Below are positions 8,154 through 64,000 of a DNA stretch of 64,000 nt, piece by piece. The DNA is from Candidatus Daviesbacteria bacterium GW2011_GWA1_41_61 (GTDB taxonomy: Bacteria; Patescibacteriota; Microgenomatia; Daviesbacterales; UBA10151), in NCBI GenBank assembly GCA_000997385.1, contig LCBT01000001.1, positions 243,663 to 307,662 on the forward strand, read 5' to 3'. The translations under genes and the position numbers were made by a program. Below the pieces are notes generated by a model that did not search any database, was not told where the DNA came from, and was given only the letters and a program-made list of their open reading frames with translations. How positions within the stretch are numbered: position 1 is the stretch's first letter; every line of letters starts with the position of its first letter.

Positions 8154-8172
8154 TTCATGTTAAAATACTTAC

Positions 8173-8511
8173 GTGATCATTACTAAATCCCGACCCTTTA
8201 CTAAAAAAGAAGTAGAAAAATTAAAAGAACAGTTTGATGTTTATATTAAAACAGTCATAGATGTAAAAAGGGACATTTGTTCAGCTGGTATGAACCGGCA
8301 TTTTGAAGGGGAGGAAATATTATTAGAACAGGGTTCTAAACAATCTAATATTTGGGGTGGAGGGATAGATCTGGAAACAAAAACCATTGATTTTAACTCC
8401 TTCATTAACATTAGACCTAATGATAATAACAACAGCAACGAAATCCAAAGTAAAGATATAAGAATAAAATATGAGGAGTTAACTAAATTTTTCTTTCAGG
8501 AAGTATTATGA
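8173..8511 (+). CDS. Hypothetical small protein (112 aa)
   Basis: ORF with no recognisable motif. Its stop overlaps the next start (ATGA). Confidence 0.45.
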   Translation: MIITKSRPFTKKEVEKLKEQFDVYIKTVIDVKRDICSAGMNRHFEGEEILLEQGSKQSNIWGGGIDLETKTIDFNSFINIRPNDNNNSNEIQSKDIRIKYEELTKFFFQEVL

Positions 8512-8780
8512 CACAAAAATTGATTATCGAATCATTGTCCATGGATCTTTTAAGAGTAGCCTTAGGATTACACCGGGGTTCTTTTAAAATGGCAGAACGT
8601 TTTAAACAGGAAGCTTTACAAAGGCAATCAGAACTAGAGTCTCGAAAAATAAATCCCTATCTTAAAAATCTTTTAGATAAAACCAAGACTGCCTTAATAT
8701 CCCCCAAAAAAGATAGAGATGAAGATATTTTAATGTACAGTATACTTTTCCAAAACTTTGCCAGGAAACAGAACAGATAA
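8508..8780 (+). CDS. Hypothetical small protein (90 aa)
   Basis: 4-nt overlap with the upstream ORF suggests translational coupling. Confidence 0.4.
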   Translation: MTQKLIIESLSMDLLRVALGLHRGSFKMAERFKQEALQRQSELESRKINPYLKNLLDKTKTALISPKKDRDEDILMYSILFQNFARKQNR

Positions 8781-8840
8781 CATCCTTAATCAACCTTCCC
8801 AAGCTTGACTTTGTATAAGATAAAGTTCATTATTTAGATA

Positions 8841-9320
8841 ATGAAGGATAAACCTTCTTTTCTTACGAAAATGAACCAGAAAGGTGTTATCTATCCTTTG
8901 ACCCTTTTATTACTAGCTGTGATGGGGTTACTTATCTTCCTGTTAGTAACCACTTTTTTCCCTTTTAAAAGTAGCCTTTTTAGTACTATTTATCCCAAGA
9001 CAACTTCCCAAGCAGCCTCCAATCCAGACCCTAAAGTACCTGCCGCTCCCCAGGCTGTAACTATTACCAATCCTCCGAATAACTCAGTTTTAGAGACTTC
9101 TTCTGAAGTGATGATTAATTTTTCAGTTACTGATAATATTGGAGTTGTCAAAGTGGACATTACTATCAATGGGGAACTTTTCTGTAGTGTAGACTCACCG
9201 CCTTATGAATGCAGCTGGAGAGTACCTTCTCTAAAAGACACTTCTTATATTATTAAGGCGCAAGCTTATGATAAAGAAGGTAACATCTCCTCATCGGAAG
9301 TTATAGTAAAGTCAAGGTAG
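8841..9320 (+). CDS. Membrane-anchored protein with Ig-like (beta-sandwich) extracellular domain
   Basis: N-terminal TM helix, then a roughly 100-aa beta-rich domain (…VTITNPPNNSVLETSSEVMINFSVTDNIGVVKVDITINGELF…). Confidence 0.5.
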   Translation: MKDKPSFLTKMNQKGVIYPLTLLLLAVMGLLIFLLVTTFFPFKSSLFSTIYPKTTSQAASNPDPKVPAAPQAVTITNPPNNSVLETSSEVMINFSVTDNIGVVKVDITINGELFCSVDSPPYECSWRVPSLKDTSYIIKAQAYDKEGNISSSEVIVKSR

Positions 9321-9324
9321 CTAT

Positions 9325-9705
9325 ATGAACAACCAAACAAAGAAAAAAATACTAGTAGCTGAAGATGATCAGTTTTATATTCGCCTTTATCAAAAAAGGC
9401 TGGCTGAAGAAGGTTTTGAAGTGATTGTGGCCAAAAATGGGGAAGAAGTTCTAAAAAAGCTAGCGAGTCAGTCGGTTGACTTAGTAATTTTAGATATTAT
9501 TATGCCTGTAAAAGATGGCTTTGAGACTTTAAAAGAGATGAAGGCTGATAATAAGTTAAGGGATATTCCAGTACTGGTAATTTCTAATTTGGGACAAGAA
9601 GAAGATGTTAAAATTGCTTTAGAACTGGGGGCAGTAGATTACTATGTTAAAGCCAATATACCGATTTATCAAATGGTAGATTTAGTGAAAAAATATGCCC
9701 GCTAG
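9325..9705 (+). CDS. Stand-alone response regulator receiver (CheY-like)
   Basis: KILVAEDD…LVILDIIMP…, 126 aa, REC domain only. Confidence 0.85.
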   Translation: MNNQTKKKILVAEDDQFYIRLYQKRLAEEGFEVIVAKNGEEVLKKLASQSVDLVILDIIMPVKDGFETLKEMKADNKLRDIPVLVISNLGQEEDVKIALELGAVDYYVKANIPIYQMVDLVKKYAR

Positions 9706-11186
9706 ACTGCCAGAGACAAGGAAAAGCTAAAAGTAGTCCCTTTCCCTTCAATACTGTTAACCCAAATTTTTCCTCCTAAAGCTTGAACAATTGCTTGGGA
9801 GATATAAAGTCCTAAACCTACCCCTTTGGATTCCATAATATATTCATTGGAAACTTTGTAAAATCTGTTAAAAAGATAAGGAATAGATTGAGGCGGAATG
9901 CCTTTACCGTTGTCTCTTATATGAACAATTACGCTCTGAGACTCTTTTTGTAAACTAATTATCACCCATCCCCCGCGGTGATTAAAATTAATCCCGTTAA
10001 TGATTAAATTAGTTAAAACCTCTTTGATCAAATAAGAATCTCCCTTTACTTTAGGGAAATCAGCAGGGGGGTTTTCAAAAGTAAGTTTAACTTCTTGCTG
10101 TTGGGCAATAACAGCCAAAGCAGCTATTGTTTCTTCAATAATCGGCTCAAGGGAAAGAGGTTTTGCCTCTACATTCAATCGCCCTTTTTCGATTTTCATG
10201 ACGTTAAGTAAATTCTCTACTAAAGTAGCCAACTGGTTGACTACAATCATAGCCCGGTTCAATAATTCCCTATCTTCAGTTTCTAATTTCTTGACCACTG
10301 ATTCACTCAGTACGGCAAGGTAACTGCGGATGGTAGTGATAGGAGTACGCAGTTGGTGGGCTACAGAAGACACAAAGTCTAACTTCATCTCTTCCAGCTG
10401 ATCAGCCTTAGTCACATCCCTTAAAACATAAATCTCTCCTTTAACCTGATTATTCTCATCTTTTAGAGGAAAATTCCGCACGTTTATGTGTGATATTTCC
10501 CCATCCAAGGAACGGAGATTAATTTTACCTTCCTTTAAATTACCTAAAGGGAGAACTTCTTCGATGATTTTCCCTTTGATTTTAGCTAAAGCAGTATTAA
10601 GAAGTTCCAAAGCCTTTCGGCTGGCCAAAAACACCTGACCGTTTTTGTCTGTGACCAGTACCCCATCATCAATACTGTGTAATACCTCCTCCAATTGAGC
10701 CTTTTCGGCAGACAACAATTGAAGATATTGCATTATCTCTTTTTCACTGCTTAATTTTTCTTTAGCTAACTGGAGGCTGGCAATTTTTTTCATCCTCCAG
10801 GTAACAAGATATCCTGCCAAGACAGGACTAGCTACTGCAAAGGCAGACTTAAAATAATTTGCCGCTAAAGCTTCCGTCTCCCCTTCTAATAGAAACAGGG
10901 TCAAAATAACCAAACTTTCTAAAATAGCTACTCCTAAAGGATTTATCAACCTCTGGTTGACACGAGCTAACAGCGGAACTAAATAAAGGGTAAAAAAGAA
11001 AGGGCTGTTTAAACCCCCGCTGAAAATTACCAATCCCAGGGAAAAAATAGTCCCGCCCAACGCTAAAACGGAATTGTTTTTAACAAATAACTCAAACAAA
11101 CTACTCCTGGAAGTTTTAGGGGCGACAAGTACCGATTGAGCCATTTGAGGCTGAGATGCTAAATTAGAATCCATTCTGACTATCAT
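9702..11186 (-). CDS. Sensor histidine kinase (multi-TM N-terminus, PAS, HisKA, HATPase_c)
   Basis: H-box SSVAHQLRTP, and a G-box region GVGLGLYIS. Convergent with the RR, overlapping by 4 nt. Confidence 0.85.
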   Translation of the reverse strand: MIVRMDSNLASQPQMAQSVLVAPKTSRSSLFELFVKNNSVLALGGTIFSLGLVIFSGGLNSPFFFTLYLVPLLARVNQRLINPLGVAILESLVILTLFLLEGETEALAANYFKSAFAVASPVLAGYLVTWRMKKIASLQLAKEKLSSEKEIMQYLQLLSAEKAQLEEVLHSIDDGVLVTDKNGQVFLASRKALELLNTALAKIKGKIIEEVLPLGNLKEGKINLRSLDGEISHINVRNFPLKDENNQVKGEIYVLRDVTKADQLEEMKLDFVSSVAHQLRTPITTIRSYLAVLSESVVKKLETEDRELLNRAMIVVNQLATLVENLLNVMKIEKGRLNVEAKPLSLEPIIEETIAALAVIAQQQEVKLTFENPPADFPKVKGDSYLIKEVLTNLIINGINFNHRGGWVIISLQKESQSVIVHIRDNGKGIPPQSIPYLFNRFYKVSNEYIMESKGVGLGLYISQAIVQALGGKIWVNSIEGKGTTFSFSLSLAV

Positions 11187-45791: not shown

Positions 45792-46448
45792 TTAAACACT
45801 GGAAGGTGAATCAACTACTTCAGCCACTTCTTCCATCATATCCTCAAAAACCATCCGGTAATAAACCTTCCGGGTCAGTTCAACATCTTTGAGGCAATAT
45901 TTGCAAATTTCCTTTAATTTTCCCTGTTGATAATAGGGCCAAACCATCGAGCCATCCATTTCATCCTTAGATGTTGGTAATCCTAAAACTTTAGCCAAAG
46001 TATCCAGTTTTTGGGCCCCATTTGACCACAATTCCCAAACTTTCATGGTGTCAAAAATAGGCTGGTTTCTATATCTGGCAAAGGTAATATCTAAACGGGG
46101 TTTGACTCCTAAAATAATTGATCTTTTATATATAAAAGGGAAATCAAATTCCCAGATGTTATGACCCACAAATAACTCCACATCTTGGACAATTTCCCAA
46201 AACTTCTGTAAGATTTCTTTTTCCTCACCACATAAAACGTCTTTAGTAACTTTTCCATTTTCCTTAATATAACCAATACAGCAGATCCGTCCAAAAGTTC
46301 CTTCAAAGGAAGTGCTAAGATACAACGCATCATCAGATACCGGTACAACCTCCTTCTTCCGGCTTTTCTTTTTCAAAATAGGCAAATACTCCTGCCTTTT
46401 ACAGTCATCACAAGGCAGAGTTTCAATATCAAAAAACAGTTTAATCAT
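45792..46448 (-). CDS. Stand-alone PolB-type 3'-5' exonuclease (RNase H-like, DEDDy)
   Basis: Exo I FFDIETLP, Exo II VGHNIWEFDFPF, Exo III YCLKDVELT. Confidence 0.7.
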   Translation of the reverse strand: MIKLFFDIETLPCDDCKRQEYLPILKKKSRKKEVVPVSDDALYLSTSFEGTFGRICCIGYIKENGKVTKDVLCGEEKEILQKFWEIVQDVELFVGHNIWEFDFPFIYKRSIILGVKPRLDITFARYRNQPIFDTMKVWELWSNGAQKLDTLAKVLGLPTSKDEMDGSMVWPYYQQGKLKEICKYCLKDVELTRKVYYRMVFEDMMEEVAEVVDSPSSV

Positions 46449-46543
46449 AGTTTTAATAAGATAGTGTTATCTAGATTAAACCCAATATTCCCCAAAGTCA
46501 AGATAAAAAATATGAGTATAACTCTCAAAAAATTCCTCCAAGA

Positions 46544-47083
46544 CTAATCTTCCGTAAACTCTGGGGGTAGTATTACTCCTGCTCCTTCTTTAGCCACTCT
46601 CTCTATTACCTCTTCCGGAGTTATCCTTATCCTTTGAGAATATGTCACTACCGCCCGGGATATATTTAATGCCTGAGGAGTTCTCTGAAACCTCATTGCC
46701 AGCGGTAAATCTACTAAATCAACACCGCCTTCTATCATAGATTGGGTAGTTGCTAACCATTCACCAATAGATCGTCGAATCTCTGATGCTTTATCGGAAC
46801 GCTCTATAGCTGCAGCAAAACTTCCGGCAATCTTCTCACCATCTTTTTCCACTATCTCTTCAATACATGATATACAGGCAGTTGTTTCATCTTCAAAACC
46901 TAAATGAGGCCTCTGGTGTTTTTGGCAATACATCCCACTTTCAATAGAACAACTTTCGCAAGCTAAAGTATCCAGTCTTCCATCAGACTGTCTTTTAGGA
47001 AGTAAAATTATTAAATCAGGATCACTGCCACATATTTCACAATTCATGCCCCAAATTTTACTACTAAAGCTAGGTAAATACAA
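46544..47083 (-). CDS. Hypothetical zinc-ribbon protein
   Basis: N-terminal CEICGS…CESCS…CISC cysteine pairs. Confidence 0.45.
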   Translation of the reverse strand: MYLPSFSSKIWGMNCEICGSDPDLIILLPKRQSDGRLDTLACESCSIESGMYCQKHQRPHLGFEDETTACISCIEEIVEKDGEKIAGSFAAAIERSDKASEIRRSIGEWLATTQSMIEGGVDLVDLPLAMRFQRTPQALNISRAVVTYSQRIRITPEEVIERVAKEGAGVILPPEFTED

Positions 47084-47121
47084 AAATCCAAAACAGAATC
47101 AAAAAGTTTTCTAGATTGTAA

Positions 47122-47364
47122 TCAAAGTTTTCCTTGAAATGCTTGATGTAAAACTGACTGCTGCAAAGCTTCTAATTCTTGTAATTGTTCTCGCTGAAGT
47201 TTTTTCGCTTCTCCAATTTTTTCTGAACTGTGGCCTGCAGAAGTAATCAGCAAATCTCCAATTTGAACCCTTTTTAAACCTTTTAACGAATCTTGTTTGA
47301 CAAAACCCTTATCACTCTTACCCCAATTAATGCCATTTTTCAAATGCATTTTTTGTTTGTTCAT
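47122..47364 (-). pseudogene. Type I restriction S-subunit (HsdS)-like remnant
   Basis: The C-terminus …KKLQREQLQELEALQQSVLHQAFQGKL matches the conserved HsdS C-terminal helix (L..L..SLL..AF.G.L). The N-terminus VQIGDLLITSAG resembles a TRD start. The ORF is only 80 aa. Confidence 0.4.
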
Positions 47365-50039
47365 CTAAAAAGTTTAACTAAATTAGAGAACGTTTGAAGT
47401 TTATGTTCCTTAAACTTCTCCTCGGTTACATAAAGACAATCTACAGTTATTTTTGACCGGGCTTGATTAACATCTTTACACCATTGTTTTAGCCTTTCCA
47501 ACTTTAATAGGTCATCCAAGTCTTCTCTTCCTTTAGTTTCTACAACCCAAATTTCCTGATTATTTACTTTTACAAAAAAATCAGGATAGTAATACGAGAT
47601 TGACCCCTCAGAATTTTTATAATCTATCTTAAAATGTATATCAAAATAATTCTTGGCAAATGATAAAATATCATCACATTTTTCGAGAAAATCAGCAAAT
47701 TGGAGTTCAAAATTACTATCACCTACAATTTTATTAAATATACTTTTCTTAGGTAATAAATATGTATTGTCATTTACTACGAAAGGTTTGCACTTACTAA
47801 TCTTTATATAGTTTTTTATTTCTGCATTACCTTTATCCTCAATAGTAAGATCATTAATTTCCTTTTTGAAAGTTTCAGTTATGGTTTTTGTAACTTCCAG
47901 CTCTGATAAATTACGTAGTATATTCAAATCCTCTAAGTTAACGTGATCTACAAACAAATAATCACTAATGAATTCTTTTACCTGACCAAATAAAATATCG
48001 TAACAGCCAAATAGACGCAGTTCCCTCATGATTGTTTGAGCAAAAAAACCGATGGCGCTTTGATATCTTGGCTCAATATTGGTATCTAAAACTGTTGTGT
48101 GGTGAATTTTATCAGCCACAACCTCTTTAAAAATTATTTCCTTCTTTTCTTTGTCGCTAAACTGTTTAATTGGCATTTTTTTGTGTTTGAATTTAGAAAC
48201 ATCTAGATTTGAAAGATTTTTATATTCTCTCTGAATACGGGGGGTAAGAATAGGCAGTTCTATATCAAGCTTTTCAATATCCTTTTTAACATTTTCACTA
48301 TCCACCTCAACAACAACTGGTGTAATCGGCTTTGCTCCTATATCCATTGCCCTTTTTTCGAGTATCACACCTTCTATGTTGATAGATTCAACGAAATCCA
48401 TAAATGCCGGAGTACCAATAATACTAACGTATTCCTCTATATCATCTCTGCCAAAAAACATCCTTCTTAGACCTCTACCTAAGGTTTGTTCGGGTAAAAT
48501 ATTTGCAGTTGATGAATATGCCCGTAGCCCAACGATAGTAGTTACATTTTTTACATCCCATCCTTCCTTAAGCATGAGTACTGATACAATAGCTTTAAAA
48601 GGACTCTCGTTGCTATCTATAGTATTTGCCTGTTCTCTTAACTTAATCAATTCCTTCTCGTCCTTACCTTGAATAGCTTCTGATATCTCCCCACTTTTAT
48701 TAGTGTGAATCGTTAAAACTGCATTTTTAAATTCAGGGTATGTTTTTTCTATGTACTCTGCTACTTCATCACAATTTTTTGTATCGTCAGTCATTATAAA
48801 AAGTATCGATTTTTTACCAGTCTTTTGAAGTTCTTTATAAGTTTTTCTCCATTCAATAACACCGAGATTTATATAATCCTCGTACTTCTCAGTAAATAGA
48901 GAGCTTTGATTTTCCTTAAGTTTTGCCCTACTGGCCTGATCTGGTAATACAGGATTTTTAACAACTCTTTGATGAATTGCTTCAACTAGTGGGTAATCAG
49001 AGATAACCTGGACAAAAATATTTCCATTATTATGTTTTGGAGTTGCAGTTACATCTATCTGTAGCGCTAACTCACCACCCTTTAGTTTAAGCTTATTATG
49101 AATATCTTGAATTGATTTAAACCAGGCTAATTTTTCATCATGGATATGATGCGCTTCATCGTTAATAACTATCAACTCATTGATCTCGCGGACTATTTCA
49201 CTTAAATTTACTTTTGAGTCGTTAGTTTTACCTACTGGTTTTGGTCCCAAAAAATAGTTCATGCTGTCTTCATCTTCGGCACTCAATCCATTAATATTTC
49301 CCTCAAAAACGCGGTGAATATTTGTTAAAAAAATGTTTCCGGTCGTGGATATTAGACCTACCTCATCTTGTAAATGAAGCGTTACTTGAAAGTCATCTTG
49401 CCAATTCTGCCCTCCATACCCATTATCTGGAAGTATTGGATCAACGTGGAAGATTTTCAAACCCGCAAAATCATTTTTAATTCTTTCAAGCACAATAATA
49501 TTCGGAGTAATTAGTAAAAAGTTTCGTGCCAGTTTAGAGTCCGGTTCATAAAGCTTATGAAAATATGCCCAAGCTAAAATTAAACTCATTACCTTTGTTT
49601 TTCCGCTGCCTGTTGCCATTTTAATGACAAACCTGAGCCAATCCTCATCAAACATATTAGGACTTACCCTACCCAATGAATCAAACTTTATTAAGTCATA
49701 CTTACTTTTAACTTTTGCAACTTCGTATAGCCATACGACTGTTTCAACTGCTTCTCTTTGGGAAAAATAATATCTAAAAGGGGTAGATACACCATTCTGG
49801 TCAAATATTGTATGTTCCTCTTTAAACCACCAATTCAAGAGAGCTTTTGAAGTTTCAGAAGCATCTGCATAATTACTGTTACGCCACTCCTTTACTTTTT
49901 TACGTAACTCCGAAATAAAAGGAGGTAGTAGTCTTTCATAACCACCTTTTTCTCTTAAATCCTCAACAGCGGGGAACCATCTTATATCTGGATCTAAAAT
50001 AACGTATGGGTCTTTTGGAAAATCTTTATGTAGTGCCAT
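47361..50039 (-). CDS. res: Type III restriction enzyme Res-like subunit (SF2 helicase plus C-terminal PD-(D/E)xK nuclease)
   Basis: Walker A KMATGSGKTKV, DEAH box VINDEAHH, and the C-terminal YYPDFFV…VVETKG nuclease motif. Confidence 0.8.
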   Translation of the reverse strand: MALHKDFPKDPYVILDPDIRWFPAVEDLREKGGYERLLPPFISELRKKVKEWRNSNYADASETSKALLNWWFKEEHTIFDQNGVSTPFRYYFSQREAVETVVWLYEVAKVKSKYDLIKFDSLGRVSPNMFDEDWLRFVIKMATGSGKTKVMSLILAWAYFHKLYEPDSKLARNFLLITPNIIVLERIKNDFAGLKIFHVDPILPDNGYGGQNWQDDFQVTLHLQDEVGLISTTGNIFLTNIHRVFEGNINGLSAEDEDSMNYFLGPKPVGKTNDSKVNLSEIVREINELIVINDEAHHIHDEKLAWFKSIQDIHNKLKLKGGELALQIDVTATPKHNNGNIFVQVISDYPLVEAIHQRVVKNPVLPDQASRAKLKENQSSLFTEKYEDYINLGVIEWRKTYKELQKTGKKSILFIMTDDTKNCDEVAEYIEKTYPEFKNAVLTIHTNKSGEISEAIQGKDEKELIKLREQANTIDSNESPFKAIVSVLMLKEGWDVKNVTTIVGLRAYSSTANILPEQTLGRGLRRMFFGRDDIEEYVSIIGTPAFMDFVESINIEGVILEKRAMDIGAKPITPVVVEVDSENVKKDIEKLDIELPILTPRIQREYKNLSNLDVSKFKHKKMPIKQFSDKEKKEIIFKEVVADKIHHTTVLDTNIEPRYQSAIGFFAQTIMRELRLFGCYDILFGQVKEFISDYLFVDHVNLEDLNILRNLSELEVTKTITETFKKEINDLTIEDKGNAEIKNYIKISKCKPFVVNDNTYLLPKKSIFNKIVGDSNFELQFADFLEKCDDILSFAKNYFDIHFKIDYKNSEGSISYYYPDFFVKVNNQEIWVVETKGREDLDDLLKLERLKQWCKDVNQARSKITVDCLYVTEEKFKEHKLQTFSNLVKLFR

Positions 50040-50104
50040 ATATCATTATCAAAGCCATCTGAAAATGGAAAATGAGTCCTTTAGCCTCAAAAATTCAGAT
50101 TGTT

Positions 50105-51475
50105 TTACCTATTTTCAACCCCCTTTGAAAACAGACTAAGTTGTTGCATATTCTCTTTAGTTTTTTGCTGGATTGTTTTTTTTGCTTTAAGAATAAACTT
50201 AATTGGCAGATAATCCTGTGTTAATCCCCAATATTTCAGTTTTCCTTCCTGTTTTTTCACCTCTATTACCCCAGCATCTCTTAATGGATTAAAATAATAA
50301 CCAGATATATTTGAGGGAGCTTTTTTTAATTGTATGGCTAAATCTTTTTGAGTTACATAGTTACTTGATGTTGCTAAAAATATTAGTAGTTCTTCTTGTT
50401 CTTTTGTTAACTCGCTTTTTTTAATCACCTCCCAGCGTTCTTTACCAAGTAACAGCATTGCTTCATCAACACCCAAAGGCTCCAGTACTGTTTCAGGTAC
50501 CTGACTGAGAATATCCTTTAATCCATTCATAATCGAACGGGCATCTCCCTCGTATAAATCATATAAACTGAAAATTGCCTCATTTGAGAATGGTGCTATA
50601 TATTTAACGACATCAGGAGATTTTAATAGCTCCATTCTTTCTTCAAACGCTTTAATTATTTCTAATTTACTAAGTGGATTAACCACTAACGGTGATAAGT
50701 GAAATACACTTTTTAAACGTTTCTCTACAGATATAATATCTCTGAAGAAATGCTTTGGCCCTAAAAATAAATAATAAACATCTCTTGTTTGAAGAATATC
50801 CCGTATTTCCTGAAAAAATCCTATAACACCCTTTTTTTCTTTTGAGTCGGATAGCACAATATCAAAATTATTGATATGAACAATAAGACCACCAAACTTT
50901 TTCCCTGCTATTTCATGAGTCTTTATAAACTCCACAAGATTAGAAAAATAGTTTTCGAGCATGGTATTTGATATACTTGGGGGATATTCTGTTGTTCCTG
51001 TTTTACCGAACTCTCCACCAAACCCCGCAATACTAATTCCTGCGGAAATATCTAAACTTTGAGTAATATCAACAAGTTTTTCTAGTTTTTGAAGTAATTC
51101 TTCTTTTTTGATAAGATCAGGGTCAAGAAGTCTGATCTCCCTAAGGGTAGATCCGATAACCTCTGTTAAGAAACTTTTTTTGTTTAAAAGATTTTTTGAT
51201 GCTTCTATTTCCCTTCGGAACGAAAAAAGAGGTTTCTTTTTCTCTTCATATTTAAATAGAAACTTATGGAAATTAGCCAAGCTTGTTTTGCCTACACCGA
51301 CATTTCCAAGAATTGTCAAACAGGCTCTTGAATCAGAAAGAAAGATATCCTTCAGGCTTTGAAGCTCGACAGTTCTTCCTACAAATGCTTTGTGGATAGG
51401 TAATTCCCCACCCTCTATAAGAGGGAGAGTATCATAAGGGTTGCTTCGTAATCCAAATTGCTGCCAGTTAATCAT
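50105..51475 (-). CDS. P-loop NTPase (AAA_16/STAND-like) with C-terminal winged-helix domain, embedded between mod and res
   Basis: FVGRTVELQSL…ILGNVGVGKTSLANF Walker A. C-terminal wHTH-like region …TQKDLAIQLKK…GVIEV…. Confidence 0.6.
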   Translation of the reverse strand: MINWQQFGLRSNPYDTLPLIEGGELPIHKAFVGRTVELQSLKDIFLSDSRACLTILGNVGVGKTSLANFHKFLFKYEEKKKPLFSFRREIEASKNLLNKKSFLTEVIGSTLREIRLLDPDLIKKEELLQKLEKLVDITQSLDISAGISIAGFGGEFGKTGTTEYPPSISNTMLENYFSNLVEFIKTHEIAGKKFGGLIVHINNFDIVLSDSKEKKGVIGFFQEIRDILQTRDVYYLFLGPKHFFRDIISVEKRLKSVFHLSPLVVNPLSKLEIIKAFEERMELLKSPDVVKYIAPFSNEAIFSLYDLYEGDARSIMNGLKDILSQVPETVLEPLGVDEAMLLLGKERWEVIKKSELTKEQEELLIFLATSSNYVTQKDLAIQLKKAPSNISGYYFNPLRDAGVIEVKKQEGKLKYWGLTQDYLPIKFILKAKKTIQQKTKENMQQLSLFSKGVENR

Positions 51476-51592
51476 ATGTATTTTCTATATATATAGTTAT
51501 TTATACAAATCTCTATATATTAAATTTGCTTTATAATCAAGTAGCCACACTTAATAGTATTCATGCAATTAATTTATTCCTCTTTTATATAA

Positions 51593-53767
51593 CTATATAT
51601 TTACCTCAATAACTTTTGTTGTGTCGTTGCCAAAAATATCTACAACTTTTACTGCAAGTTTGCGTGATCCCTTTGAGACTTCTTTAGCTGCCGAAATTAA
51701 TTCTAAACTTCGATCTTTTTTGGTACGGAATGATTGCCATTCATTTTCAAAAATATAGTTTCCCGTCCAGGCATCTTCTTCATCTTCATTTTTTTGATTC
51801 CTTATTCTTATGAATTCCTTTTTACTTTCAAAGTTAAAATCTACCGCCCAATAATCAACCCAATCTGTCCATTTCGTTGTTAAAACCTCACGGTTAATAA
51901 CCTCTGAATCCTTGCCTTTACTAAGTCTTATAACTTGACCATTTTCAATCACAACCTTACTGCCTCCAGATTTTAACTTTTCTTCAACCTCTCCTGTATC
52001 ATCTTGGTTATAAAAAACACTAAAATCACTTAATTCAATAGCTACAGTATTCTTTTTGACAATTGGTTTAACCTCTATAAATGCCACCTCGTAGAATTTT
52101 ACTTGTCCCTTTTCAACAGCTTTTTTATCAAATACCTCTCGTGGTATTACTCTAAGTTGCAGATCAACTCCTTGATTTTTAAACTGATCTACTTCAAGTC
52201 CCATCTCCCAATCAAACCCAAGTACGTCTACTTTGGTAATGTTTTTCTCTACACATTCAACTACTACTTGATGTAAAAAGTCTCCGGAAACAGGAAAGTT
52301 TATTGGACCGATAGCCACAAGGCGGTCTCTTTTTTTACCGACCATAGTTAAAAATGAATCCACAGGTTCCGCTTTGTATGCTGACAATATCAATTTAATA
52401 AATTCTTTTTCTTTTATGTCTTGTTGTAATTGTCTTTCTTCTTCTCTTAAATCTGGGTTTACTTGGATAAACAAATCCCGTTCGTATGTTCCTATATTCA
52501 AAATTTCAAAGGCTCTAAAATTCTTACCCACTTTTTTCAGTTCTCTTTGAACTCCAATCATTCTTTTACGAGTAGTATGAATAGCAAATCTTCCCAAATC
52601 AGAACCAATCCATTTTCTACCCAACTTCTCGGCAACTGCTAATGTAGTTCCAGAACCCACAAAAAAATCTGCAACGATATCACCTTCATCAGAAGAAGCA
52701 GTGATTATACGTCTAAGTAGGAATTCAGGTTTTTGTGTAGGATAATCAAGCAATTCCTTTGAGGAAGTTGCAACCCCAAATCCTGGAATGTCTGTCCAGA
52801 TAGAATCCTGGGGAATTGTGTATTCATCTAAATAGTATTTTTTATATTTTTGCCCACTTGAAGAAACATAAATTAACCCTCTTTCTTCAAAATCTTTTAT
52901 CGATATTGGTGAATAATCGCCAAGAGTAGTTCTTTTGAATTTTCTACCATCAGGATCTTGATATCTAAATTCATTGAGTTGCTTATCGACAAGAGTGCCA
53001 CTTTGAGGGTGAAATATATGTGAGTCTGATTTTGAGTAACAAAAAATTATATCAAACGTTTTTGGCCAATGTTTTGCTACTGCTTTTGCACCTTTACCTA
53101 CAGCATCTTTTTTCCAAATAATTTCTCCACGGTAATTAGCACTACCAAACAATTCATTTAGAATCATCCTTAGATAGCTGTTAAGTCGCCAATCGCAATG
53201 GACATATATACTTCCTTTATCTGCTAGTAAATCAGCCATTAATTTTAATCGCTCATAAATCATTGCAATAAAACTGTCAGCTCCTTTACCCCAAGTGTCC
53301 CGATAAGCAACTTCTTCTATAATTGAGGGTTTCTTAGTAAATTCTTCATCACCTATCTGTACATTCATGGAAAAATCAGCACCTACATCAAATGGTGGGT
53401 CAATATAAATGAGTTTTATACCACCTTGAGCTTCAATTTCTTTACGGAGGGGACCGTTTTTAAGGGAGGACAGAATTAATTTATTGTCGCCCCAGATAAG
53501 TTTGTTTGTCCAGCCTTGGATTTGATGACCGGAAGTGTCAAAAAGAGTTTGTTGCATTTTTATCTCCGCTTCACTTCTTGGCTCATCAATATGCTCAATT
53601 GTTTGAAAAGGGAGAACAATATTACTAACCTCATTTGTCTTCCCATTCCACACCAACTCAACCTCCCGTTCATCATCAAAAAGAAGAAACCTGTACTTAT
53701 CGGGTAATGGCTTACCTGATTCAAGGTATTTTATAACATCACGTTTTTCATTGTCAGATAGTTTCAT
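51593..53767 (-). CDS. mod: Type III Mod-like beta-class N6-adenine (or N4-cytosine) DNA methyltransferase with roughly 300-aa C-terminal extension
   Basis: Motif IV IDPPFD precedes motif I FFVGSGTT (beta-class order). Total 724 aa. Confidence 0.8.
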   Translation of the reverse strand: MKLSDNEKRDVIKYLESGKPLPDKYRFLLFDDEREVELVWNGKTNEVSNIVLPFQTIEHIDEPRSEAEIKMQQTLFDTSGHQIQGWTNKLIWGDNKLILSSLKNGPLRKEIEAQGGIKLIYIDPPFDVGADFSMNVQIGDEEFTKKPSIIEEVAYRDTWGKGADSFIAMIYERLKLMADLLADKGSIYVHCDWRLNSYLRMILNELFGSANYRGEIIWKKDAVGKGAKAVAKHWPKTFDIIFCYSKSDSHIFHPQSGTLVDKQLNEFRYQDPDGRKFKRTTLGDYSPISIKDFEERGLIYVSSSGQKYKKYYLDEYTIPQDSIWTDIPGFGVATSSKELLDYPTQKPEFLLRRIITASSDEGDIVADFFVGSGTTLAVAEKLGRKWIGSDLGRFAIHTTRKRMIGVQRELKKVGKNFRAFEILNIGTYERDLFIQVNPDLREEERQLQQDIKEKEFIKLILSAYKAEPVDSFLTMVGKKRDRLVAIGPINFPVSGDFLHQVVVECVEKNITKVDVLGFDWEMGLEVDQFKNQGVDLQLRVIPREVFDKKAVEKGQVKFYEVAFIEVKPIVKKNTVAIELSDFSVFYNQDDTGEVEEKLKSGGSKVVIENGQVIRLSKGKDSEVINREVLTTKWTDWVDYWAVDFNFESKKEFIRIRNQKNEDEEDAWTGNYIFENEWQSFRTKKDRSLELISAAKEVSKGSRKLAVKVVDIFGNDTTKVIEVNI

Positions 53768-53879
53768 ATTTTCATGCCTATATTAAAGCACAAATCTTGT
53801 CCTGCCTGCTATTTTAGTACTTAACCTGGGTGAAAACAATGTAAAGAGGTCTTATCTTGTAAAAAGGTTTTGAAGTACT

Positions 53880-55172
53880 ATGATTATCCTAAGAAGTGAA
53901 GGGGTGATTATGAAAAATCTGTTAAAAAAAGTCAGGAAGTTGGTGGAAAAATTGTTGCTTCGGCTGAAGCTGTATTTTAAAAAACTACTGTTTCCCTTAT
54001 ACCTTTTTCCTTTAAAGATTGCTACTTATTCCCTGTATTACTTGATTTTATTTATCATTAAGCTAATCCTGGCTTTATTGGGGCTTCTTTTTGATGCCCT
54101 AAAATACCCTTTTAAATCCATGAAACATTTTTTAAAATTTGCCCTGCTTCTGTCAGCATCTTTATACCTTGTGGCATCACTATTTGTGATTGCCGACTAT
54201 TTGCGCATCCAATACGGTTTTTATGGCAAATTTTTCTGTGCTTACGGTACCAAAGAAAAATTATTAAGCTCAGTTGTCCGGATAGTGGGTGGTTATTCTG
54301 AAGGTTCGGGCTTCTTCATCTCTGAAACCTCGGTATTAACCAATTTCCATGTTATTGCCGATGAACCAAGTCCAAAGATTATTTTTCCTGACGGCAAATT
54401 TATTACCCCTATTAAAATCCTGGGCGATAAAAATGCCGATTTAGCAGTTTTAATTACCGATAAAAAGTATCCTGAAAAAGTATTATCCATCCCTAGTCAA
54501 GTAGAGTTTAAAGCAGATGAGCCACTGATCTCTGCAGGTTATCCGCTGGGAACAAATCTGACCGGAAACGCTACTGTAGTGAGGGGTAATTTTATCGATT
54601 TCCGCCATTCCAAGAACAACCCGGTTTATTACATCCAAACCAACATCAGCTTAGTAGAAGGCATGAGTGGAGGACCGCTAACAGATCAGTGTGGAAAGGT
54701 TATGGGTGTAAATACCATGAGTTTGGCAGGATTATCCCTGTTTATCGGAGCTGACCAGGTAAAGTCTATGGTTTCCAGTTTTTCAGACCAGGGGATAACC
54801 AAGATCGAGGTTGATCCATCCGCTTCCCCGGAGGATTCAGTCAAAGCTTTTTACACTTATCTTAAAGCCAGGAGGATGGAAGATGGCTTTAAACTGTTAA
54901 GCCAGGAATATCTTAAGAAAACGAATTTTCAGGAATGGACCAGCAGGTTTAAGGATATTTTGGATGTCAACATAATTAAATCAGAAAAGCTTGAAAATTC
55001 GCCAGATTCGGCTTTTATTAAGTTTTCAACAAAAAACTGGATAGATAATGAGGCGGAGGTGCATTTTTACGAAGGGACCTGGCAAACAGTTAAGGAAGAT
55101 AGGGTGTATAAAATGCTTAAAAGTAATATTAAGGAGATCTACAACCCCGGCTATTTATGGTTTTATGAATAA
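53880..55172 (+). CDS. Membrane-anchored trypsin-like (S1) serine protease
   Basis: Multi-TM N-terminus. Catalytic triad His (TNFHVIAD), Asp (NADLAVL), Ser (GMSGGPL). A roughly 100-aa C-terminal domain of unknown function. Confidence 0.75.
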   Translation: MIILRSEGVIMKNLLKKVRKLVEKLLLRLKLYFKKLLFPLYLFPLKIATYSLYYLILFIIKLILALLGLLFDALKYPFKSMKHFLKFALLLSASLYLVASLFVIADYLRIQYGFYGKFFCAYGTKEKLLSSVVRIVGGYSEGSGFFISETSVLTNFHVIADEPSPKIIFPDGKFITPIKILGDKNADLAVLITDKKYPEKVLSIPSQVEFKADEPLISAGYPLGTNLTGNATVVRGNFIDFRHSKNNPVYYIQTNISLVEGMSGGPLTDQCGKVMGVNTMSLAGLSLFIGADQVKSMVSSFSDQGITKIEVDPSASPEDSVKAFYTYLKARRMEDGFKLLSQEYLKKTNFQEWTSRFKDILDVNIIKSEKLENSPDSAFIKFSTKNWIDNEAEVHFYEGTWQTVKEDRVYKMLKSNIKEIYNPGYLWFYE

Positions 55173-55249
55173 AATTATGTTTTCCAACCCCAAGGGTTGT
55201 TTGGCTTCTAACCTCGGGTACTATGATCTAAAGCATTATAAAAAAGTTA

Positions 55250-55279
55250 CGCCAGATTTTGCGCGTGATTTGCGCAAGA
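55250..55279. repeat. 30-bp perfect direct repeat, copy 1 (CGCCAGATTTTGCGCGTGATTTGCGCAAGA)
   Basis: Identical to 56437-56466. The two copies flank the Fic gene. Confidence 0.9.
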
Positions 55280-55281
55280 TG

Positions 55282-55308
55282 TGATATAATTATCCGAAAG
55301 GATAATTA
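55282..55308 (+). promoter_or_regulatory. Extended -10 element (TGaTATAAT) overlapping a 9-bp-stem hairpin with GAAA loop, upstream of fic
   Basis: TGATATAAT at 55282-55290. Hairpin arms TAATTATCC (55287-55295) and GGATAATTA (55300-55308) around a GAAA loop. Confidence 0.4.
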
Positions 55309-55374
55309 ACAGGTTCTGCAAGCAAGCTGTAAAATTTCTCTACAGCGAGCGAAGCAAGTCCTTATAATATACCT

Positions 55375-56433
55375 ATGTTTAAGCCAAATTACACCATTAC
55401 ACCCCTCATTCTCTCCCGAATAGCCGAAACTGCAGAAATCAAAGCTGCCGTGGAAAGATCCAGAGTTTTACCCCTTAATGAAGCCCAGTTAAAAAGACAG
55501 GCAATCCTCCGAATGGCCCATACCTCTACTTCTATTGAAGGTAACAAATTGGCTCAATTTGAAGTTGGCAAAGTGCAGGAGGGTAAAACAGTCAGAGCTC
55601 CCCAAAAAGATATTTTGGAAGTAGAAAATTACTTAAATGCCTTAAAACTTTTAGATAATTTATCTAAAACAAAAAATCATCTTACCATCCAGGAGATCCT
55701 GACTATGCATAAAACAGTGATAGACGGGCTGGTGGATGAGGAAAAGTCGGGTAAATTTCGCCCGGCAGATGTTTATGTCATCGATGATTTAGGAGGAGGT
55801 AAGGAAATGCTAAGATTTAAAGCTCCTCCGGCAAGCAAAGTTGCTGGGTTAATTGACGACTTACTCCGCTGGATTAGATCCGCCAAAGAAGCTGGAACCC
55901 ATCCGATTGTGGTAGCAGGGATCTTCCATATGGAATTTGTTTCCATCCATCCTTTTACTGATGGAAATGGCAGGGCAGCCAGGCTTTTAACCCAACTTTT
56001 GCTCTACAGGATGAACTGGGACTTTCGAAAAATTATCGTTTTGGAAGACTATTACAATAGGGATCGTTTAGCCTATTACAATGCCGAGCACTATGATGAG
56101 GGAAAGGAGTACCAACAAGGCAGAGATTTCACCCATTGGTTAGAGTATTTTTCCACGGGTTTTTTAGTCGAAGCCAGAAAAGCGCTGGAACAGATCCAAC
56201 TAATAGGCTACGGACAGGTTAGTAAAAAATCAGAGACTGTTTATTTAGATAGAGACGAACTGCAAATAATGGATTTTTTAACAACAGTGGGGAGGATTAC
56301 TTCCGAGGACATTGTGGATATTTTAAAGGTTTCAAAACGCACAGCTCAACTCAAGCTTAAGAAATTACTGGATTATGGCTTGATAAAGCGTCACGGCAGC
56401 ACCACGGCTACTCAGTACACTCTGAAAAAATGA
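55375..56433 (+). CDS. Class II Fic-domain AMP-transferase with N-terminal inhibitory helix and C-terminal wHTH
   Basis: Fic motif HPFTDGNGRAAR. The upstream STSIEGN matches the (S/T)xxxE(G/N) autoinhibition motif. C-terminal HTH-like …SKRTAQLKLKKLLDYGLI…. Confidence 0.85.
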   Translation: MFKPNYTITPLILSRIAETAEIKAAVERSRVLPLNEAQLKRQAILRMAHTSTSIEGNKLAQFEVGKVQEGKTVRAPQKDILEVENYLNALKLLDNLSKTKNHLTIQEILTMHKTVIDGLVDEEKSGKFRPADVYVIDDLGGGKEMLRFKAPPASKVAGLIDDLLRWIRSAKEAGTHPIVVAGIFHMEFVSIHPFTDGNGRAARLLTQLLLYRMNWDFRKIIVLEDYYNRDRLAYYNAEHYDEGKEYQQGRDFTHWLEYFSTGFLVEARKALEQIQLIGYGQVSKKSETVYLDRDELQIMDFLTTVGRITSEDIVDILKVSKRTAQLKLKKLLDYGLIKRHGSTTATQYTLKK

Positions 56434-60793: not shown

Positions 60794-61447
60794 TCAAACA
60801 AAAGTTTCCGGTAGTTGGGCTTTTAACTCTTCAACAGTTGTATCTCCTCCATGACCAGGATAAACCATAGTCCTTCCTGCCAGTTTCAAAATTTTCTTGA
60901 CAGATTTTGCCAGCTGGGAAAAAGAAGCATACCGAAGATCAGTTCTTCCCACTATCCCCCCAGCAAAAAGCAGATCCCCGCAAACTAACAGATGATCTTT
61001 TTTACTGTAAAGACAGACTCCTCCTGGGGTATGTCCGGGTGTTTCTATCACCTCCAGCTTCTCTTCTCCTAAAGAAAGGGTTTTTTCTTCCGGAAAAGGG
61101 AATGGTTCCACAAGCAATGGATCTGCTTTAACAGCGGTAAAATGTTCAGCACTATTTTTGGCCTGTTTTAATAAAAAGAGGTCTTTAGGATGAATATAAA
61201 AAGGAATTTTACAAGTTAAAGCTATTTCACTCACAGCTAAAACATGGTCAAAATGCCCATGGGTGGCTGCCACCCAAAAAGGTTTTAAGTTTAATTTGGC
61301 AATCTGATCAATAATATATTCCCCATCATCCCCGGGATCAATAATCCCGACATTACCTGAAGCTTCCACCAGATAACAATTAGTTTTAAGTTGTCCAACA
61401 ATTAAAGGAATAATTTTCATAAAAAATATCATACCATGAAGCATCAA
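60794..61447 (-). CDS. MBL-fold metallo-hydrolase
   Basis: HxHxDH motif ATHGHFDHV. 217 aa. Confidence 0.8.
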   Translation of the reverse strand: MMLHGMIFFMKIIPLIVGQLKTNCYLVEASGNVGIIDPGDDGEYIIDQIAKLNLKPFWVAATHGHFDHVLAVSEIALTCKIPFYIHPKDLFLLKQAKNSAEHFTAVKADPLLVEPFPFPEEKTLSLGEEKLEVIETPGHTPGGVCLYSKKDHLLVCGDLLFAGGIVGRTDLRYASFSQLAKSVKKILKLAGRTMVYPGHGGDTTVEELKAQLPETFV

Positions 61448-61583
61448 ACCTCAATCAAGCTTCCATCCAAGATCATTTGATGCTAAAATGAGCAAAGCTC
61501 TTACTTCATAATAGGCTAAATATTTGGGGGTCATCTAATGGTAGGATAATAGGCTCTGAACCTATCAATCATGGTCCGAATCC

Positions 61584-62102
61584 ATGCCCCCAAGCACTTC
61601 GAGTACAATTAGAACCGCTTTTGGTATACTTATTTTTGTGAAAAATCTTTATCAAAATTCTCAACTATTAACCCAAAAAGATTTTAAAAAATTAGAAAAA
61701 GCTTTTGAATATGCATGGTCAAAAGAAACAACTAGTCCGATTATAGAAGACGAATGGTCAGAAGATAATAAAGCATACGGACAATGTGCCATTACAGCTT
61801 TAATCATTTGTGATTTATATGGAGGTAGAATAATTTATGATAAAGGTAACTTACACGTTTGGAATGAATTACCCGATGGAACACAACAAGATTTTAGTAG
61901 AAAACAATATAAAGAAGATCTAATTTTTACGATTTACAAATATAAAACTAAAGGAGATTTGTTATCTGACAATTATGGTCGAAAAACGCAAATTACCCCA
62001 AGATACCAATTACTAAAACAAAGACTAGAAGCAAAACTCAAAAGATTAAAATTCAATGTTAATTCATTAGTAATTTTACTTCCCCTCAATCGATTAAGAT
62101 AA
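61584..62102 (+). CDS. Hypothetical protein (A+T-rich gene)
   Basis: 172-aa ORF with no clear motif. Its start may be an internal GTG (VKNLYQ…). Convergent with the small peptide ORF. Confidence 0.45.
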   Translation: MPPSTSSTIRTAFGILIFVKNLYQNSQLLTQKDFKKLEKAFEYAWSKETTSPIIEDEWSEDNKAYGQCAITALIICDLYGGRIIYDKGNLHVWNELPDGTQQDFSRKQYKEDLIFTIYKYKTKGDLLSDNYGRKTQITPRYQLLKQRLEAKLKRLKFNVNSLVILLPLNRLR

Positions 62103-62198
62103 TTAGATTTTCTTTAAAGTTTTTGTTTGTTTTGAAGTTTTTTTTACTTTGATACTTTTTACAGCTTCAAAATCTAGGACTGCCTTACATTTTCCCAT
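62103..62198 (-). CDS. Unannotated 31-aa Lys-rich peptide ORF immediately downstream of tandem radical SAM genes (candidate precursor or small protein)
   Basis: Canonical SD AAGGAGGT located 9 nt upstream of ATG 62198. Sequence MGKCKAVLDFEAVKSIKVKKTSKQTKTLKKI. Lies 58 nt after the rSAM stop. Confidence 0.4.
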   Translation of the reverse strand: MGKCKAVLDFEAVKSIKVKKTSKQTKTLKKI

Positions 62199-62255
62199 TT
62201 TTAAATACCTCCTTTCTTGGTTTAAATTCAGATTTATAACTATGAGTATAACATA

Positions 62256-63224
62256 TCAATCAAAAAAATGAGCTACGATATTATCGTAGTCGATAATATT
62301 TCTCATATTACTACGGCTTACATATGCCTGAGAATTTTCCATTATTTCTTTGAAAGCTGATATTTTAGCATCTAACACTTGTTTCTTTAAATTAGAAAAT
62401 GTTTCAGTAGGATATTTGCAAAGTGCCAATTTGAGAGGAAAGCCATACCACGGTAAAACATATCCATTTGGTAATATATGTAAAGAAGGTATTGTAAAAA
62501 GAACCTTATTTTTTTGTAATTCAGTCTTCTTTACAAGATTTGAAGTCAAATAAATATTATATTTCTCTTTCAGACGTTTAAGCGTACTATTAAGTGAAAT
62601 CAAGTGTTTTTCATCACAACCAATTGTTTGTTTGTGTTTTATTGCTCTCCCATAAAAATCAACGTGAGAAAAACGAATTGCCCGAACTCCTTTATCGATA
62701 CATATATTAACTACATCTTCCATATAAGGAAGCGTCTGAGGAGTTACCATAGATTGCACAAAGACAGGAATTTTTTCGACCTGTAATAGGCTAAGGGCAT
62801 CAATAGCTGCAACATAACTACTATCTTGCCTTCGTAACCAATCATGAGTTCTTTTACATCCATCGATACTTATTCCTACACCGTCTACATACTTCTTAAA
62901 TCTGTGCAGGTTCGTTCTATTAAGCAAAATGCCATTTGTAAAAATGTAGACTTTTATTTGGCTATTGAGTTGCTTTATGTATTTTACCAGAGGAACAATT
63001 TTCTTTAACACCAAGAGAGGTTCACCCCCAGAAATCGTAAATGCGTTAAAACCATTATCTATTAAATCTTTAAGTACTAATTTCCAATCATCCAATTCCA
63101 ATTCCTCAGCTAAAGAATGTCCTGCTTCCGTAAAACAATGTAAACATTGTAAGTTGCATTGTTTGGTAATTTCTAAGAGAACATGACGGTGAAAATTATA
63201 ATTTTTGACTAAAATATTATTCAT
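62256..63224 (-). CDS. Radical SAM enzyme (core domain only)
   Basis: CNLQCLHC (Cx3Cx2C) at residues 23-30, and a GGEPLL motif. Its start overlaps the upstream gene stop (TAATG). Confidence 0.8.
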   Translation of the reverse strand: MNNILVKNYNFHRHVLLEITKQCNLQCLHCFTEAGHSLAEELELDDWKLVLKDLIDNGFNAFTISGGEPLLVLKKIVPLVKYIKQLNSQIKVYIFTNGILLNRTNLHRFKKYVDGVGISIDGCKRTHDWLRRQDSSYVAAIDALSLLQVEKIPVFVQSMVTPQTLPYMEDVVNICIDKGVRAIRFSHVDFYGRAIKHKQTIGCDEKHLISLNSTLKRLKEKYNIYLTSNLVKKTELQKNKVLFTIPSLHILPNGYVLPWYGFPLKLALCKYPTETFSNLKKQVLDAKISAFKEIMENSQAYVSRSNMRNIIDYDNIVAHFFD

Positions 63225-64000
63225 TATCTTGTTTTTGCTAATTTCATATAATTACGAAGTGTTTTTGGACAACCACCACGATTCAGGCAAGCAGAAAAGT
63301 GAGTTGAAGATAAATAACTATAACCACAATAGTCTCTATCTTGTATTTGTTGATGAAAGTTAACATTGGTCTTCAATAAATCCTTAATATTATCTGTCAC
63401 AAGATTACCTATCTTGTATTCATCAGAGAGGTATGACAATTCAACGCAAGGGTACAAGTCCCCTTTATAAGAAATAAACAAGTCACTGTTACTACATTCA
63501 CAACGGAATTGATAATTTTTTAATATTTTTTCGTGGTAGATACTCTTAATAATATTTATTAAGTATCTTTGATCTTCGATTAATGGTCTTTTTAGCTTTA
63601 AAATTACCTCATTATCGTTGGCTCGACCATTGAAGACAAAATCATTAATTTTAATTTCATTTATTCCTGTATCTTTTGCAAATAATACAAGCTCTTCAAG
63701 ATCGTTAATAGTAATATTTGATACGGTAGCACTAATAACAACTGAAATACCTAATTTTTGAATTTTTTTAATATTATTCATAATAATTAACACTTTATCT
63801 CTTTTTAAAATCTTATTATGCTCGTCCACTAAAGAATCAAGACTAAAAGCTACAATCGAAATATATTTTTTAAAATTTACTAAAAGTTTGTTAGTAATTA
63901 AACTCCCATTAGTAAATATTGAAACTAGCATTTCTTTTTGGTGTGCGTATTTAACTAAATTCCAAAAATAATCTTTTATTAGTGGCTCACCTCCAGTAAA
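63224..64000 (-). CDS. Radical SAM/SPASM-domain enzyme, N-terminally truncated by the window edge
   Basis: The frame stays open to the window end, translating …FTGGEPLIKDYFWNLV… (GGE motif). C-terminal Cys-rich SPASM-like region CECS…YPCV…CGYSYLSSTHFSACLNRGGCP. Confidence 0.75.
   Translation of the reverse strand, partial: FTGGEPLIKDYFWNLVKYAHQKEMLVSIFTNGSLITNKLLVNFKKYISIVAFSLDSLVDEHNKILKRDKVLIIMNNIKKIQKLGISVVISATVSNITINDLEELVLFAKDTGINEIKINDFVFNGRANDNEVILKLKRPLIEDQRYLINIIKSIYHEKILKNYQFRCECSNSDLFISYKGDLYPCVELSYLSDEYKIGNLVTDNIKDLLKTNVNFHQQIQDRDYCGYSYLSSTHFSACLNRGGCPKTLRNYMKLAKTR

Follow-up and report, generated by a model that had tools for sequence, protein, structure and literature searches.

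A Type III-like mod-res pair separated by an ATPase gene

The window analyzed here, a stretch of 64,000 nucleotides (nt) from an ultra-small bacterium, Candidatus Daviesbacteria bacterium GW2011_GWA1_41_61 (contig LCBT01000001.1, positions 243,663 to 307,662), contains a Type III-like restriction-modification (R-M) operon whose core genes, mod and res, are separated by a 1.5-kb cassette encoding an ATPase. Three intact open reading frames (ORFs) follow each other on the minus strand in the order mod, ATPase, res, with intergenic regions of 117 and 65 nt: mod (51593-53767) encodes a Type III-like beta-class DNA methyltransferase of 724 amino acids (aa), the second gene (50105-51475) an Orc1/Cdc6-like AAA+ ATPase of 456 aa with a C-terminal winged helix, and res (47361-50039) an 892-aa protein combining a superfamily 2 (SF2) helicase with a C-terminal PD-ExK nuclease. 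An initial annotation of the sequence had described this head-to-tail arrangement with short gaps, together with a DPPF motif ahead of FxGxG in Mod, the Walker A motif of the ATPase, and the helicase and nuclease motifs of Res; all of it was confirmed, the gene coordinates being exact. No terminator-like sites were predicted between the three genes, and a scan of positions 46900-54100 for sigma-70 promoters and terminators gave results not above those of shuffled sequences.

The assignment of Mod is based on family searches (PF01555, 2e-39; PADLOC MTase_III, 2.9e-110) and on matches in the PDB to Mod 6k0w (3.6e-14) and EcoP15I Mod 4zcf (7e-13). Motif IV (DPPF, aa 123-126) precedes motif I (FVGSG, aa 369-373), as in the beta-class methyltransferases of Type III systems. 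Measured against 56 homologues, the segment between these motifs (aa ~205-340; 52748-53155, minus strand) drops to 17-26% identity, compared with 60-90% elsewhere in the protein, and from this pattern it is presumed to be the target-recognition domain (TRD). A hypervariable center of mod beside a conserved Res is the established pattern of Type III systems (PMC1557822).

The C-terminal region of Mod (aa 405-724; 51596-52555, minus strand) had initially been regarded as a peculiar extension, a claim that did not survive the comparison with homologues. The last 310 aa are 55-82% conserved among 57 homologues, the domain retrieves 3,644 database matches, with PF01555 present in every match that has a recorded Pfam domain, and the fold of its structural model (predicted local distance difference test, pLDDT, 73.9) resembles only generic FN3/Ig-like beta-sandwiches. 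The supposed extension is a standard structural domain of the family and not an anomaly. A specificity module or a novel catalytic module was ruled out for this region, as the C-terminus is conserved while the center varies and the fold is only a generic beta-sandwich. Three proteins of ~320-350 aa (P0307, P0346, and P0381), encoded on contigs of 0.25-3.75 Mb, consist of the Mod C-terminal domain alone; they may derive from mod genes that are split or frameshifted (possibly phase-variable), or from gene calls at an internal start.

Res matches PF04851 (1.7e-16) and PADLOC REase_III (7.9e-22), with TnsA-like_N and RE_endonuc near threshold (the latter at 6.8e-05 and 23.1 bits, for a cutoff of 23.4). 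Its GSGKT, DEAH, and PD...ETK motifs correspond to the SF2 helicase and C-terminal PD-(D/E)xK nuclease of Type III Res subunits. The NCBIfam model NF046055 (BPTD_3080-family restriction endonuclease) scores 291.6 bits over aa 40-384 only, against a cutoff of 800; Res is related to this family without being a member of it. A metagenome scan with Res retrieved at least 581 relatives, uniformly 60-86% conserved except for the last ~50 aa. Mod and Res form a Type III-like pair of an abundant and widespread family of the Candidate Phyla Radiation (CPR)/Patescibacteria. Similar to EcoP15I and EcoP1I, the pair presents the mod-then-res order, a beta-class Mod with a hypervariable central TRD, and a Res in which an SF2 DEAH helicase is joined to a C-terminal PD-ExK nuclease. 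In contrast to them, the conserved C-terminal beta-sandwich region of Mod is longer (~310 aa), and Res matches no solved structure among the PDB sequences.

The ATPase belongs to no curated family in Pfam, NCBIfam, PADLOC, or PHROG and is therefore not a routine annotated component of Type III systems, in line with the initial annotation. Its matches to AAA_16 (20.2 bits, cutoff 32.6), ATPase_2 (19.1 bits, cutoff 33.2), and nSTAND3 (16.8 bits, cutoff 27.2) are sub-threshold, its sole PADLOC match is a CARF-associated winged helix-turn-helix (wHTH; 7.4e-05), and PHROG returned nothing beyond a weak HTH. The protein has a Walker A motif GNVGVGKT and a Walker B motif VHINNFD without the usual DE pair; across the family, the N-terminal WQQFGL..NPY..L motif is invariant and the unusual Walker B reads VH(V/I)NNFD. 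An AAA+ base and lid followed by a winged-helix DNA-binding domain reproduce the architecture of the Orc1/Cdc6 clade, but none of the Cdc6/Orc1 models of Pfam and NCBIfam matched, and membership at the sequence level is not recovered. Sequence identity to the archaeal Orc1/Cdc6 proteins (PDB 2qby, 1w5s, and 1fnn) is only 13-17%. Unlike them, the ATPase comes from bacteria, where it is sparse and scattered horizontally, and it bears the two family motifs given above. Its likeness to initiators is one of fold and does not imply an origin-binding role.

The ATPase family, ~450 aa long and 52-60% identical across many CPR/Patescibacteria lineages, comprises 62 clusters at E < 1e-30 among 1.84 billion representative proteins, and none of 2.9 million viral contigs yielded a relative. 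That the ATPase is a core gene universal to CPR is ruled out by this sparse census and by the lack of conserved synteny. ATPases from the ORC/Cdc6 clade (ORC, origin recognition complex) followed by a wHTH are a core part of BREX and of BREX-related methylase/helicase systems (PMC12839542), and the ATPase resembles BrxC, BrxD, and the DUF499 ATPases in joining an AAA+ module of this clade to a wHTH and in adjoining a methylase and a helicase/nuclease. However, BrxC and the DUF499 proteins are obligate, reach 1000-1300 aa, and carry extra domains, whereas the ATPase here has 456 aa, is optional, and was matched by no HmaC, BrxC, DUF499, or BREX model in Pfam or PADLOC. Unlike the signal transduction ATPases with numerous domains (STAND; Avs/NLR-like), it has no sensor repeats or effector domain and its matches remain below the curated thresholds, Orc1/Cdc6 being clearly higher. 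Neither the family searches nor the structure model revealed a recognizable effector domain, and the model contains no extra domains.

Distribution of the ATPase cassette and the guests of the mod-res junction

The Res-centered loci, the best 80 of the at least 581 relatives (65-94% identity), contain in their great majority a full-length Mod, including the C-terminal region, adjoining res, and this holds wherever the contig extends far enough. Of the 65 loci with sufficient sequence upstream, only L057 has the ATPase, and the other 64 are without it. The nearest Res relatives are among the latter: mod and res lie 6-8 nt apart in L037 (94% identity) and L036 (86%), and a DUF3800 guest takes the place of the ATPase in L035 (91%). 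Among the 70 junctions where both the end of Mod and the start of Res are visible, 29 are empty, ranging from an overlap to at most 8 nt, and these empty relatives share the mod-res translational coupling of known Type III systems. The other 41 (59%) are occupied by inserts of 0.3-3.6 kb, covered by ORFs of the mod/res strand, a further difference from EcoP15I and EcoP1I.

The mod-res junction is a hotspot of diverse co-directional guests. Clustering of the 79 guest ORFs gives 47 groups, with matches to NYN, KTSC, DUF3800 (three clusters), Schlafen/AlbA_2 (SLFN_AlbA_2), Bro-N, NYN-PLD, SIR2_2 with HerA, GmrSD_N with RiboL-PSP-HEPN, Fic, trypsin, and AAA_15/AAA_21 (Old/AriA/GajA-like), as well as to PDC-M04B, PDC-S05, and an REase-TIR model in PADLOC; for about 13 of 30 guest representatives Pfam gave no match, nor did PADLOC for several of these. 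Many guests begin by an ATGA overlap with the mod stop codon. Whole two-gene defense modules also occur in the junction, namely SIR2_2 with a HerA-like ATPase in L038, and GmrSD_N (DUF262) with RiboL-PSP-HEPN, accompanied by a Bro-N protein, in L062. Some multi-gene inserts retain a short piece of a core gene, either the 3' end of mod or the 5' end of res (L046, ~6828; L048, ~4640; L057, 2331-2360), found in three of 43 occupied loci and in one of 2150 shuffles, and these gene-end remnants suggest that guests may have been acquired or stacked through recombination at the conserved gene ends. Our literature search found no earlier account of a gene lying between the mod and res of a Type III system, which is an absence of evidence only.

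The ATPase-centered sample comprises at least 23 loci, in ~14 of which the gene is solo in unrelated surroundings, without Mod-like or Res-like sequence in the flanks. One solo copy, in a complete Peregrinibacteria genome, follows dnaB and precedes aspS, another lies before murD, and a 65%-identical homologue (P0009, JGI 3300056388 contig) is located between cmk and map in an otherwise canonical ribosomal spc/alpha operon, an unusual home for an accessory gene. The neighbors of distant homologues (25-31% identity) are unrelated housekeeping or unknown genes that give no clue to function, and no integrase, transposase, or partner gene travels with the ATPase at the neighborhoods examined.

In support of the initial annotation, ATPase homologues also co-occur with mod or res elsewhere, between or beside these genes in L007, L008-L012, L013, and L057. 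Nevertheless, the ATPase and its Mod/Res neighbors have discordant histories. The ATPase of L007 is 86% identical to that of the window and is flanked by a dissimilar Mod (35%) and Res (25%), while in L013 Mod and Res are 73% identical and the ATPase just 56%. In L008-L012 (Candidatus Roizmanbacteria PFSC01000132.1 and relatives) the ATPase (70%) precedes Res (73%), and mod is missing, the upstream genes being rplL and gyrB. A neighbor-joining tree places the embedded ATPases in two distinct clades, both of which have solo sister lineages, and they are housed in two different Mod/Res families. The distribution shows the ATPase to be an optional passenger rather than a third subunit, and that the R-M pair and the ATPase are mutually dispensable.

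Two of these loci present additional features. The contigs of L008-L012 end within or just past res; since a Type III Res is expected to be inactive when Mod is absent, the locus may be decaying or mod may be located elsewhere. In L007 (6757-8139), res is apparently split (689 and 123 aa) and followed by a Type_ISP_C fragment and a KTSC and NYN pair, the latter being the commonest guest inside the mod-res junctions of the main family.

The ATPase cassette is a discrete, transferable block with its own palindrome, optional in the operon. It consists of a 5' regulatory region and the ORF (50105-51610, minus strand), and its limits, which are sharp, follow the nt identity with L007, which is 84% across exactly 51610-50105, from 17 nt before the mod stop codon to the ATPase stop codon. 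In L008, homology to the window begins at practically the same point on the left, 6 nt ahead of where the window has its mod stop codon, with rplL there replacing mod, and the 65-nt spacer between the ATPase gene and res (50040-50104, minus strand) lies outside the DNA shared with L007. Non-coding DNA of 117-150 nt precedes the gene and is conserved whether the copy is solo or embedded, a feature in which most other guests differ. An inverted repeat, ACATATAG-N13-16-CTATAT(A/G)TATAG, is located directly before the ATPase start codon, often with a second copy further upstream. In the window, it corresponds to a palindromic operator-like element, ATATAG-N16-CTATAT (51491-51518, no strand assigned), which is the single copy of ATATAG-N12-18-CTATAT in the 64 kb, where 0.03 are expected. 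Among 114 loci, the pattern is found directly 5' of the ATPase gene in 15 (solo and embedded) and once elsewhere, and none of the 79 Res loci that lack the ATPase has it. In 12 of 13 other loci, the ATPase gene is poorer in GC than the remainder of its locus. Visual inspection of the junction and upstream sequences revealed no repeats flanking the cassette, no repeat search having been run. From the position and symmetry of the palindrome, we infer that it could mediate autoregulation of the ATPase.

An embedded cassette and its possible functions

Genes embedded in defense operons are known for Hma, BREX, DISARM, and Type I R-M systems, with 96.7% of them co-oriented (Payne et al., 2024, bioRxiv 10.1101/2024.01.29.577857) and with PrrC in EcoprrI as a functional precedent, and guilt by embedding has led from such operons to validated new defense systems. 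The case described here is one of this already known gene embedding, in a CPR Type III family, and the ATPase is an uncharacterized candidate. It fits the phenomenon because the guest is nested between core genes on the same strand (likewise in L007, L013, and L057), is optional to the host pair (64 of 65 loci without it), and occurs outside the host (the ~14 solo loci). As in Payne et al. (2024), the guests of the junction are co-directional, diverse, mostly of defense type, and also found non-embedded elsewhere, and some of them match the PDC-M04B and PDC-S05 of that study. In contrast, that study covered neither Type III systems, to which the two-gene host here belongs, nor CPR bacteria, in which it was found. 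The guests here occupy one precise junction, where start and stop codons often overlap as ATGA, and the ATPase guest brings its own operator.

We consider it probable that the locus is an ordinary Type III pair in which an optional, self-contained cassette is embedded, with an ATPase that acts independently, regulates itself, and is a candidate for a defense or regulatory function. By homology with EcoP15I, Mod would use its central variable domain to recognize an asymmetric site and methylate it, and Res together with Mod would cut unmodified DNA. Unrelated co-directional guests become embedded at the junction, the guest in the window being a ~1.5-kb cassette of palindrome, putative promoter region, and ATPase. 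The ATPase would most likely be an independent ATP-dependent DNA-binding switch that represses its own promoter via the palindrome, and embedding may provide it with linkage, co-transfer, and read-through expression. Since the insertion disrupts the tight mod-res translational coupling of empty sites, res is probably expressed here by read-through from the mod or the ATPase promoter.

Several observations weigh against this interpretation. The samples are small and biased, namely the best 80 of at least 581 Res loci and at least 23 ATPase loci, and the promoter scan was not above chance. The ATPase lies beside Type III-like genes in five of ~20 sampled lineages and in two Mod/Res families, which exceeds a random gene, and in the clade of the window (window, L007, and L008) three of three members are R-M-associated; the frequency of this association could reflect a real functional link, beyond mobility. 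In addition, the neighbors of solo and distant ATPase homologues are not clearly defense-related, and the defense role of the ATPase is a candidate one, proposed from guilt by embedding only.

The CPR defense repertoire is poorly known; in these organisms CRISPR is rare and a reliance on R-M is thought likely (PMC6509639). A single recognizable slot in a very abundant CPR Type III family offers a simple route to CPR-specific defense candidates, among which the ATPase with its private operator represents a rare bacterial initiator-clade fold with a testable DNA target. A bolder proposal can be made only tentatively, although we regard it as possible. The mod-res junction would be a dedicated cassette slot, as its 59% occupancy, at least 47 guest families, ATGA coupling, and recombination footprints might suggest, and the ATPase would be a new single-gene, self-regulated CPR defense or control module that senses invading DNA or R-M inhibition, or that sets the level and timing of res expression via its own operator.

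The alternative that survives best, which we nevertheless find unlikely, is that the ATPase is optional but cooperates with the R-M pair, as a gate, as a timer of res expression, or as a back-up effector or sensor triggered when the R-M system is inhibited, in the way that EcoprrI holds PrrC in check. However, most ATPase homologues are solo and have the same operator, the closest Mod/Res relatives are without the ATPase, the histories of the ATPase and of Mod/Res are discordant, and no effector domain is recognizable in the 456-aa protein.

A less likely alternative, improbable in our judgment, regards the ATPase as a non-defense DNA-binding accessory, such as a chromosome- or replication-linked regulator, that landed in an insertion-tolerant defense locus acting as a genomic sink. 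Its initiator fold, the solo copies beside dnaB or within the ribosomal spc operon, the 52-60% conservation across CPR lineages, and the lack of a PADLOC defense match agree with this idea, as do the DnaA boxes near the gene. The DnaA-box consensus (TTATCCACA/TGTGGATAA) is found 87-141 nt 5' of the ATPase start in four lineages (L004, L011, L013, and L057), each time as the sole copy in the locus, with one-mismatch variants before other ATPase genes. Exact boxes also occur 21-36 nt upstream of res in L046, L050, L079, L082, L095, L107, and L108, and on the opposite strand in L078; overall there are 37 exact occurrences, compared with ~16 expected, in 1.39 Mb. In contrast, the DNA upstream of the ATPase in the window contains no exact copy, having a DnaA box with two mismatches only, the family is sparse and its synteny not conserved, the GC content is lower than that of the hosts, and the co-guests at the junction are overwhelmingly of defense type.

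The initial annotation had proposed that Mod, ATPase, and Res form a distinct defense system of three obligate components. The genes are indeed co-directional with short gaps, their order is the same in L007, L013, and L057, and there is a loose likeness to helicase-methylase-ATPase systems such as Hma and DUF499/DUF1156. Nevertheless, an obligate triad is essentially excluded because of the distribution: both the Res-centered and the ATPase-centered surveys rule it out, with the ATPase in one of 65 related Mod/Res loci, 29 of 70 junctions empty, the nearest relatives either abutting or holding other guests, and ~14 ATPase loci solo; moreover, the ATPase has its own cassette, regulatory DNA, and operator, and PADLOC gave no Hma or BREX match for it. 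An ATPase of phage, plasmid, or transposon origin (a replication initiator or a TnsC/MuB-like target selector) that would mark a mobile-element insertion is hardly credible and finds no support, given that it has no relative in the 2.9 million viral contigs, only a weak HTH in PHROG, no integrase, transposase, or partner genes alongside it, and no flanking repeats visible by eye at the cassette edges, where no repeat search was run.

Mobility of the block and neighboring genes

The mod, ATPase, and res genes have a GC content of 0.33-0.35, compared with ~0.416 in the flanks, in agreement with the A+T-richness noted initially. Together with an hsdS remnant, they form a low-GC block (47105-53794, minus strand) that recurs in L116, which corresponds to window positions 53794-47105 at 99.97% identity. 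The match starts 27 nt before the mod ATG and extends across res and the hsdS remnant, the right-hand limit being the end of the fetched L116 locus. The exact ATPase protein is present on at least 24 contigs, of which L116 is one. Because the left flank of L116 (1-700), with a START-domain gene, is unrelated to window 53795-54475, with a protease gene, and because the GC content is low, these data support a recent movement or rearrangement of the block as a unit, and the horizontal acquisition that had been proposed for it. The hsdS remnant (47122-47364, minus strand), which overlaps the res stop codon, is an 80-aa ORF with its best PADLOC match to Specificity_I (5.3e-05), and it is also found in the identical blocks L115-L117; it is a decayed leftover, a C-terminal fragment, of another, Type I R-M system inside the mobile block.

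Two genes lie immediately upstream of mod on the opposite strand (53880-56433, plus strand). The first encodes a membrane-anchored trypsin-like protease of 430 aa with RT-Protease/LmuA-like matches in PADLOC, and the second a Fic-wHTH protein matching the PADLOC SoFic defense model (1.8e-50); taken with the R-M block, the two genes resemble a small defense island. Fic and trypsin genes are also junction guests elsewhere (L081 and L101). Downstream of res (45792-47083, minus strand) are a 179-aa Cys-rich ORF without a family match and a 218-aa PolB-type 3'-5' exonuclease (PF10108; DEDDh in PADLOC; DNA polymerase exonuclease subunit in PHROG). Other low-GC stretches of the window, at 61000-64000 (0.28-0.35), adjoined by a tRNA-Gln gene (61524-61595), and at 8000-10000 (0.33-0.37), may be further acquired segments.

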